From a virus, in UHGV virus genome UHGV-1437364: a stretch of 6,577 nucleotides of DNA; one strand, 5' to 3'. Position 1 is the stretch's first letter, and each line of letters opens with the position of its first letter. The position numbers were made by a program, and so were the translations under genes. This document shows positions 4,165 through 4,250 of this stretch, in pieces. Under the pieces are notes generated by a model. The model did no database searches. It worked only from the letters and a program-made list of their open reading frames with translations, and was not told the origin of the DNA.

Positions 4165-4212
4165 TCCGCGCCTCCCGCCCCGTGTTCAGGCCACCCCGCC
4201 AGGAGGACCCGT
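4165..4212 (-). repeat. Degenerate cos-like relic (cosQ-like plus disrupted cosN)
   Basis: The minus strand reads ACGGGTCCTCCTGG...ACGGGGCGGGAGGCGCGG, against the intact ACGGGGCGGCGACCTCGCGG at the two cos sites. The adjoining ~36 bp (4201-4234) is about 90% identical to 1761-1796. Confidence 0.45.
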
Positions 4213-4234
4213 AAAAAAGCCGGATTGCTCCGGC
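4213..4234 (-). terminator. Intrinsic terminator ending the ORF92-SSB operon
   Basis: The minus-strand RNA reads GCCGGA-GCAA-UCCGGC followed by U6, about 17 nt downstream of the SSB stop. It is a near copy of the 1774-1795 terminator. Confidence 0.6.
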
Positions 4235-4250
4235 TTCTGTCACTCGTCGC

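Follow-up and report, generated by a model that had tools for sequence, protein, structure and literature searches.

Why should an island that already carries two intact lambda-type cos sites hold a third cos-like sequence with an altered cosN core, and to which packaging system does that sequence belong? The question is raised by a 6,577-nucleotide stretch of DNA, referred to in its entirety as the window, in which the pattern GGGTCCT-N19-21-ACGGGGCGG occurs three times, at 832-868 on the plus strand and at 1736-1771 and 4175-4210 on the minus strand, where zero occurrences are expected. The two intact sites, at 832 and 1771, read GGGTCCT, 20-21 nt, ACG, GGGCGGCGACCT, CGCGG; the third, hereafter site 3, reads GGGTCCT, 20 nt, ACG, GGGCGGGAGG, CGCGG, AAAAAA on the minus strand. 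The original prediction for this locus rightly placed site 3 where the replication module meets the capsid genes, and regarded it as a degenerate cos-like site, either the relic of a decayed ancestral cos or a secondary or decoy site for terminase. In order to trace its origin, we compared site 3 with phage, prophage, and island sequences. The comparison leads to a different view of where the site comes from, and has enabled us to propose a tentative model for its use.

The carrier island and its three cos sites

The first and last 47 nt of the window (1-47 and 6531-6577) form a perfect 47-nt inverted repeat of Nextera transposase adapter, in which GTCTCGTGGGCTCGG and an index-like CTAGTACG come before AGATGTGTATAAGAGACAG; at both ends the contig thus stops in sequence that stems from the library and is not biological. 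The remaining 6,483 bases are matched over at least 80% of their length in the chromosomes of Escherichia coli Nissle 1917, ATCC 25922, and a further 144 complete genomes. They are 99.7% identical to Nissle 1917, from which they depart only by a 17-bp deletion near 630 and a 1-nt deletion at 4190. The 17-bp deletion, which removes CGCGGATCCGTATGTTG relative to Nissle 1917 (about 9583-9599 of locus L001), breaks up a conserved hypothetical gene of 93 aa, located at the island end, leaving the two short ORFs 533-664 and 624-797, and may be either an assembly error or a real mutation.

In Nissle 1917, the island adjoins tRNA-Pro, between yejM and narP, and contains genes for an integrase, an HTH regulator, an Icd-like protein, a P4-type primase, and Ssb, together with a lambda E-type capsid gene, a D-type decoration gene, and a gene annotated as “terminase small subunit”. 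The locus has int, an alpA-type regulator, pri with ori, and few late genes, spans about 11 kb, uses a tRNA or other attachment site, and keeps its genes in the same-direction order, all of which are features of Gram-negative PICIs such as EcCICFT073 (PMC6092414). The carrier element in Nissle 1917 and ATCC 25922 is thus recognizable as a Gram-negative PICI at tRNA-Pro and a sibling of EcCICFT073. Dense direct and inverted GGTAGA/CTACC-type repeats at 4980-5230, directly downstream of the primase gene, are probably the iterons of the island's replication origin. An 11,098-bp metagenome contig (L044; IMGVR_UViG_3300045988_152974) has a 119-bp terminal direct repeat and corresponds to a circular assembly of 10,979 bp that contains site 3 as well as two lambda-type cos sites, and an excised or replicating form of such islands therefore occurs.

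The two lambda-type sites of the window are arranged head-to-head, with the cos at 832 pointing towards the terS-like gene that separates it from the cos at 1771. The cosB side at 832 resembles I2-R3-I1 of phage 21 and of a CFT073 prophage, while the arrangement at 1771 has been described before for PICI cos sites (PMC9026076). The 180-aa product of the intervening gene aligns with lambda Nu1 over residues 6-166 at 35% identity (E 2e-34), the C-terminal part included. We considered this gene as a candidate rppA and rejected the assignment, as the protein has no similarity to RppA of CFT073 and is a full-length Nu1 homologue. In sibling islands, the slot between the two lambda-type cos sites is occupied by either a Nu1-like or an Rpp-type gene, and the present island may rely on its own TerS, and not on an Rpp protein, to redirect packaging. 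With site 3 included, the three cos sites of the window have three types of cosB: island-specific (1771), phage-21-like (832), and VT1/Stx-type (site 3).

That the terminator-plus-cosQ module of the intact cos recurs near 4201-4234, as originally proposed, is borne out by our alignment. The sequence GCCGGAG(A/C)AATCCGGCTTTTTT(G/A)CGGGTCCT is present on the minus strand at both 1765-1795 and 4204-4234, with 29 of 31 bases shared (two mismatches, 94%), and the repeat was matched in none of 200 dinucleotide-preserving shuffles. The hairpin at site 3, T1, closes the pri-orf92-ssb operon 13 nt past the ssb stop and lies 2 nt upstream of cosQ. It has a 6-bp GC stem, a 4-nt loop, and a UUUUUU tract, as is typical of Rho-independent terminators, and folds with -23.3 kcal/mol (z -3.3); a simple terminator scan did not flag it. 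The likeness is not limited to this hairpin, since cosQ, the lambda-like spacing, and the left half of cosN match as well.

The description of the core as ACG↓GGGCGG followed by an altered remainder also stands: this stretch, at 4183-4175, is identical to lambda, and the differences are confined to the right half of the core. A top-strand nick is predicted between 4181 and 4180 (arrow). The bottom-strand position is uncertain, because the CG flanks of site 3 lie 10 nt apart (GGGCGGGAGG and then CGCGG), while a 12-nt stagger would also end before a CG (GGGCGGGAGGCG↓CG). The 1-nt deletion at 4190 falls within the G-run of the spacer between cosQ and cosN. The spacer measures 20 nt in the window, compared to 21 nt in Nissle 1917 and in every other examined island copy with the centre GGGCGGGAGG. 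Because many contigs from human-gut metagenomes contain the identical site with a 21-nt spacer, the shorter spacer is private to the window, and it may be a sequencing error. The features of the locus are collected in Table 1.

Table 1. Positions of site 3, its neighbours, and the other cos sites in the window
Feature	Position	Strand	Remarks
Inverted lambda-type cos	832..950	+	About 90% identical to the cos region of phage 21; cosB side matches I2-R3-I1 of phage 21 and of the CFT073 prophage at about 88-90% identity
gpNu1 (TerS) homologue, full-length, 180 aa	1054..1596	-	Pfam Phage_Nu1, E 2.3e-23
Intact lambda-type cos (hairpin, cosQ, cosN GGGCGGCGACCT)	1716..1798	-	Followed by island-specific cosB and the island's own Nu1-like terS
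orf68 and lambda E-type major capsid gene	2575..3836	-	First genes downstream of site 3; Pfam Phage_cap_E, E 3.4e-52
T2, second terminator-like hairpin	3997..4038 (about)	-	Immediately follows the cos segment; fold -25.6 kcal/mol, z -4.2
cosB-equivalent segment (putative)	4049..4165	-	Homologous to the cosN-terS region of VT1-Sakai/Stx2-type prophages
Spacer and cosN-like core	4166..4203	-	Spacer 4184-4203, ACG 4181-4183, GGGCGGGAGG 4171-4180, CGCGG 4166-4170
cosQ, GGGTCCT	4204..4210	-	Identical to lambda cosQ, read at the lambda end junction
T1, intrinsic-terminator-like hairpin	4213..4238	-	Stems 4219-4224 and 4229-4234, U-tract from 4213-4218
ssb	4251..4673	-	Last replication-module gene upstream of site 3; Pfam SSB, E 4.9e-15; RefSeq annotation in Nissle

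In lambda-like phages, cosQ is a highly conserved element of 7 bp. Conservation also extends to the CG flanks and the left half of cosN; the right half of cosN often varies in nature and is reportedly under weak selection (PMC4669245). The lambda end junction reads GGGTCCT, 20 nt, ACG↓GGGCGGCGACCT CGCGG. Site 3 shares with it the GGGTCCT cosQ, the distance of about 20 nt to ACG, the CG-flanked nick context, and GGGCGG as the first six bases of the cohesive end, and also resembles lambda in having an A/T-rich segment and then a putative protein-binding region on the packaging side (PMC4669245). [quoted passage not shown]

Relationship to the putative cos family of VT1-Sakai and Stx2-type prophages

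In the phage collection that we searched, positions 4049-4217 of the window (minus strand) match only the spacer between Rz and terS of VT1-Sakai and Stx2 prophages, with 87-90% identity over about 165 collinear bp and E-values down to 2e-53. Site 3 consequently reaches past the interval to which it had been assigned, with homology to the phage cos region running from 4217 down to 4049. On the phage side, the alignment begins two bases before cosQ, continues through the core, and ends at GTTCGACATCTTT, about 50 bp before terS. More distant versions of the site are found in mEp460, mEp213, and mEp043. In the mEp460_4F5 record, the genome is opened no more than 5 nt from the predicted nick, and a 12-nt 5' overhang has been inferred for mEp213 (PMC12315714). 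Putative cos sites of Sakai prophages have been mentioned in the literature (PMC2669165). Site 3 is collinear with the putative cos of VT1-Sakai/Stx2 and mEp460/mEp213-type phages and, in the Nissle copy, has the same 21-nt spacer; it differs from them in its centre, GGGCGGGAGG instead of GGGCGGGCGG and variants thereof, and in the island hairpin that replaces the phage upstream sequence.

Past the core, the cosB-equivalent segment contains inverted CATCATC...GATGATG motifs that flank an A+T-rich spacer, and the inverted repeat ATCATCATC/GATGATGAT is present in VT1-Sakai. R-site-like inverted repeats are clear in VT1-Sakai, where they measure 9 bp; in the window they measure only 7 bp, which is below the limit of the tool, and we take them as a hint only. 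By analogy with the phages, TerS might bind within 4049..4165. In the phages, this segment precedes a DUF1441 terS gene, whereas no terS gene follows site 3 in the island.

A scan of IMG/VR with the cosQ-spacer motif returned 97 loci. The 63 copies in a phage context all lie directly upstream of a DUF1441 terS gene and terL, with Rz no more than 700 nt upstream in 53 of them. Such a position is where cos lies in lambdoid phages; the phage Rz-terS site is itself a putative cos. VT1-Sakai (Sp15) and Stx2-type prophages encode a DUF1441 TerS, a gpA-type TerL, and a ClpP-capsid fusion as head gene; GpA_ATPase and GpA_nuclease domains are found in the TerL of mEp460, to which the VT1-type terL is about 70% identical. 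No contig among the 97 IMG/VR loci and 23 metagenome loci examined starts or ends at the predicted nick. Four IMG/VR contigs that end exactly 30 nt into the site were considered as DNA ends and rejected, as their ends fit an assembly break at a repeat with k = 31. Our literature search found no paper giving GGGCGGGCGG as a cohesive end, and the papers on Stx phages describe other cos types or merely a “putative cos”.

How well site 3 has been preserved can be judged from the columns conserved among the phages themselves. Of the 178 columns between cosQ and the end of the homology, 111 are conserved in at least 95% of 43 unique phage copies; the window retains 109 of these and Nissle 1917 retains 110, while the phage copies deviate at 1.4 columns on average. 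Since the conserved columns are kept almost completely and the phages deviate to a similar extent, site 3 is best described as a near-intact member of another natural cos family, and very probably represents a copy of the VT1/Stx-type cos. The term “degenerate cos-like site” is therefore only half appropriate. The site is indeed cos-like, but it does not represent a degenerate form of the lambda-type cos next to it, as the bases that appear changed are the normal bases of the VT1/Stx family. Descent from a decayed lambda-type cos is likewise unsupported.

The centre of the core sets the island copies apart. The sequence GGGCGGGAGG is present in 12 of 26 island copies, all of these behind ssb, and in none of the 63 phage copies, in which GGGCGGGCGG is the commonest centre, alongside variants. 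Island copies located beyond the capsid gene nearly always have the phage centre GGGCGGGCGG. As the island copies have diagnostic bases and yet keep the phage-conserved columns, they form a separate lineage and do not stem from recurrent new capture from phages. Across the phage-context and island sites L010-L134, which are otherwise highly conserved, the CG flanks are 10, 11, or 12 nt apart, and the sequence between them also varies. Such variation would be odd for a cut at a fixed position, and suggests that the bottom-strand nick is positioned from the cosB side.

Occurrence in other islands and comparison with known PICIs

A VT1-type site is found directly behind ssb, or behind PerC after ssb, in several PICI lineages that differ in their downstream modules. 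In window-like islands, the module consists of lambda E/D capsid genes and two lambda-type cos sites. In a second arrangement, a ClpP-capsid fusion gene lies between two VT1-type sites, without terS or rpp. In the two minimal islands examined (L009 and L049), the VT1-type site is the only cos-like site found. A further module has two mEp460-subtype sites, with a 12-nt centre, at the corresponding two positions and a DUF1441 gene of its own. Pairs of this kind flank the ClpP-capsid fusion at 4051 and 6587 in strain IrN (L007) and at 4551 and 7085 in strain BH100 (L135), with a 19-nt spacer, the 12-nt centre GGGCGGGAGCGG/T, and the DUF1441 (TerS-family) gene after the second site. This gene is a possible counterpart of Rpp, or of TerS-based redirection, for the mEp460-type phage family.

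Several other elements enlarge this picture. Five ClpP-capsid-fusion islands from IMG/VR (L015, L022, L038, L104, and L106) have terL fragments on both sides and appear to be inserted in the terL of a matching-family prophage, with its cos and terS nearby, much like the helper-embedded PICIs (PMC10111431). In E. coli JNEC-KY176 (L136), a cf-PICI-like element with genes for a RepA helicase, an HK97-type capsid, a protease, a portal, a connector, and an HNH protein carries a T1-cos-T2 cassette behind ssb-PerC; its site, at 4526, has a 20-nt spacer and a 12-nt centre, GGGCGGCGGGGT, that is intermediate between the lambda and VT1 types. A real example of cos decay is provided by E. coli MEW (L008), in which the inverted cos at 6812 (minus strand) is truncated in the middle of cosN, with ACGGGGCGGCGG fused to the 3' end of a terS-like gene; this island has no site behind ssb.

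In every island copy, a G+C-rich terminator hairpin in one of three sequence versions ends 2 nt before cosQ; the phage sites are without it. This island-specific hairpin just upstream of cosQ accounts for the duplicated terminator module noted originally. Among 21 distinct island copies, 19 deviate at 0-3 of the phage-conserved columns, although the primases of the island backbones are as little as 42% identical. Conservation among the closest relatives, by contrast, carries no weight, because in the 14 distinct ones that we aligned over the interval from ssb to the capsid gene, the whole intergenic region is nearly identical, and selection on the site is inseparable from recent common ancestry. 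Of the 13 listed island-bearing genomes, 12 have no second copy of the VT1-type site that would mark a candidate resident helper.

The best-studied relative of the island is EcCICFT073, whose cos1 and cos2 have been described (Fillol-Salom 2018, 2019; Murialdo and Feiss 2022). It shares with the window the gene layout of E. coli PICIs, a hairpin abutting cosQ, and the presence of several cos sites per island. [quoted passage not shown] In CFT073, the island adjoins phoQ, and the order is ssb, PerC, T1, a few bases, and T2, with the 165-bp cos segment exactly absent. Deletion of both cos1 and cos2 abolishes the transfer of EcCICFT073 by lambda and phi80 (PMC6092414). We considered this double deletion as a possible test of site 3 and rejected it, as the published data say nothing about a segment that EcCICFT073 lacks. 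Our literature search found no paper that combines EcCICFT073 with a “cos3”, and no description of the third site.

PICIs that bear the cos of their helper are well established (PMC6092414, PMC10111431). In HE-PICI 11capE and SaPIbov5, as at site 3, the satellite holds a helper-phage cos that includes the cosB side, at about 90% identity; 11capE shares 258 bp at 90% with its helper 50icd (PMC10111431). With a helper-type cos that includes cosB, no specificity-changing protein would be needed (PMC10111431; PMC6092414). Unlike these two satellites, the island in the window has its helper-type copy beside two cos sites of other specificity. While a helper-type cos on a PICI is already known, a third packaging specificity on one island is less usual.

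Possible use of site 3 and its significance

The sequence alone is compatible both with the use of site 3 as a secondary site and with its being carried as the relic of a cos of another type. The suggestion of a secondary terminase site may thus hold, in altered form. We propose that site 3 (about 4049-4217, minus strand) is a complete cos of a second specificity, with cosQ, cosN, and a cosB-equivalent bracketed by T1 and T2, a proposal for which we see the chances as evenly divided. That the island uses it as a packaging site for VT1/Stx-type helpers we consider just as probable as the contrary. When a helper of the VT1/Stx family grows in the cell, its DUF1441 TerS would bind the cosB-like segment (4165 to 4049), and its gpA-type TerL would nick at ACG↓GGGCGG (4181/4180), with the other strand cut about 10-12 nt away. 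Island concatemers would then be packaged towards decreasing coordinates, that is, towards the capsid genes, until a second cut is made at a later copy of the site under the guidance of cosQ. The other two cos sites would serve helpers of the lambda/21 type, one through the Nu1-like TerS of the island and the other through its phage-21-like cosB. The absence of decay across diverse island backbones and the position of the VT1-type site as the sole cos of minimal islands lead us to favour a working cos. Against use stand the 10-nt distance between the CG flanks, compared to 12 nt in lambda and 10-12 nt in the family, which leaves the nick geometry ambiguous, and the private 1-nt deletion in the spacer of the window copy.

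Other observations that count against use are at the same time the main points in favour of an alternative that is unlikely but survives best, namely that an undecayed T1-cos-T2 cassette is simply the 3' end of the replication module (pri-orf92-ssb) and is carried along unused, this module having come from an island lineage adapted to VT1/Stx helpers and recombined onto a lambda-type packaging module. Such a passenger would explain why the cassette follows ssb or PerC whatever the downstream module, including the cf-PICI-like element with HK97-type head genes, and why it does not match the lambda-type capsid genes and cos sites of the island. The cos segment is cleanly missing from EcCICFT073 and from the L042 island, which rejoins the alignment at T2; nothing else is changed in either, and the segment is thus dispensable for the EcCICFT073 island design. 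Most host genomes, the 12 of 13 noted above, have no phage bearing a VT1-type site, and damaged cos sites do occur in the island family, as in MEW. What argues against an unused passenger is the lack of decay, seen both in the 109-110 of 111 conserved positions that are kept and in the few deviations of 19 of the 21 distinct island copies, whereas a dead site would be expected to have lost cosQ or its nick context in some lineages.

An improbable alternative is that site 3 assists packaging by lambda/21-type helpers, with a terminase that starts at the main cos recognising site 3, which has the same orientation and lies 2.4 kb upstream. Site 3 would then either offer an alternative cut, and so adjust how much DNA is packaged, or interfere with helper packaging as a decoy. 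[quoted passage not shown] Moreover, the transfer of EcCICFT073 rose when one of its two cos sites was deleted, which indicates that an extra cos can modulate packaging (PMC6092414). However, ends produced at site 3 would fail to pair with those of the main cos at about 5 of 12 positions, and a 2-position mismatch, the only one tested, already reduced the yield 4-fold (PMC4669245). Furthermore, the I2-equivalent sequence of site 3 differs, the 120-bp phage-type cosB segment would be left without a role, and EcCICFT073 works without site 3.

Two further explanations have little to recommend them. The two strong hairpins that bracket the segment could be taken for a double terminator with a regulatory spacer between the replication and capsid operons, in which the likeness to cos is incidental; we consider such a purely transcriptional element very improbable, as CFT073 keeps both hairpins and the downstream region without the 165-bp segment, homologues of the segment occupy the cos position of phages, and neither an Rfam family above threshold nor a promoter-like site was found at 3800-4400. 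Hardly credible is the idea that the neighbouring lambda-type cos was duplicated together with its terminator and the copy then mutated, for although the hairpin and cosQ are 94% identical in the two places, site 3 is unrelated to the lambda-type sites of the island beyond the left half of cosN, its relatives over some 165 bp (87-90%) are the phage cos sites, and its supposed mutations are normal for that family.

If we return to a working cos, a wider reading is that the three cos sites are keys to three terminase specificities, such that the island of Nissle 1917 and ATCC 25922 could be packaged by helpers of the Stx-converting type as well as the lambda type, and that the slot behind ssb is a general one in which PICIs exchange helper cos cassettes and thereby alter or broaden their helper range. 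We advance this reading tentatively and regard it as somewhat doubtful; it adds that the island may compete with lambdoid phages of the Stx-converting type.

Either way, site 3 should no longer be viewed as a decayed lambda cos, and the published cos deletions in EcCICFT073 do not address it. If it is inert, it would still clearly mark a recombination event that joined island lineages with different helpers. If it works, interchangeable cos cassettes, alongside Rpp or TerS proteins, would determine the helper range of E. coli PICIs, and a single island could address several phage families. This bears on how such islands spread among commensal, uropathogenic, and Shiga-toxin-producing E. coli, and on whether Stx-type phages can move DNA out of strains in wide use, Nissle 1917 and ATCC 25922 among them.
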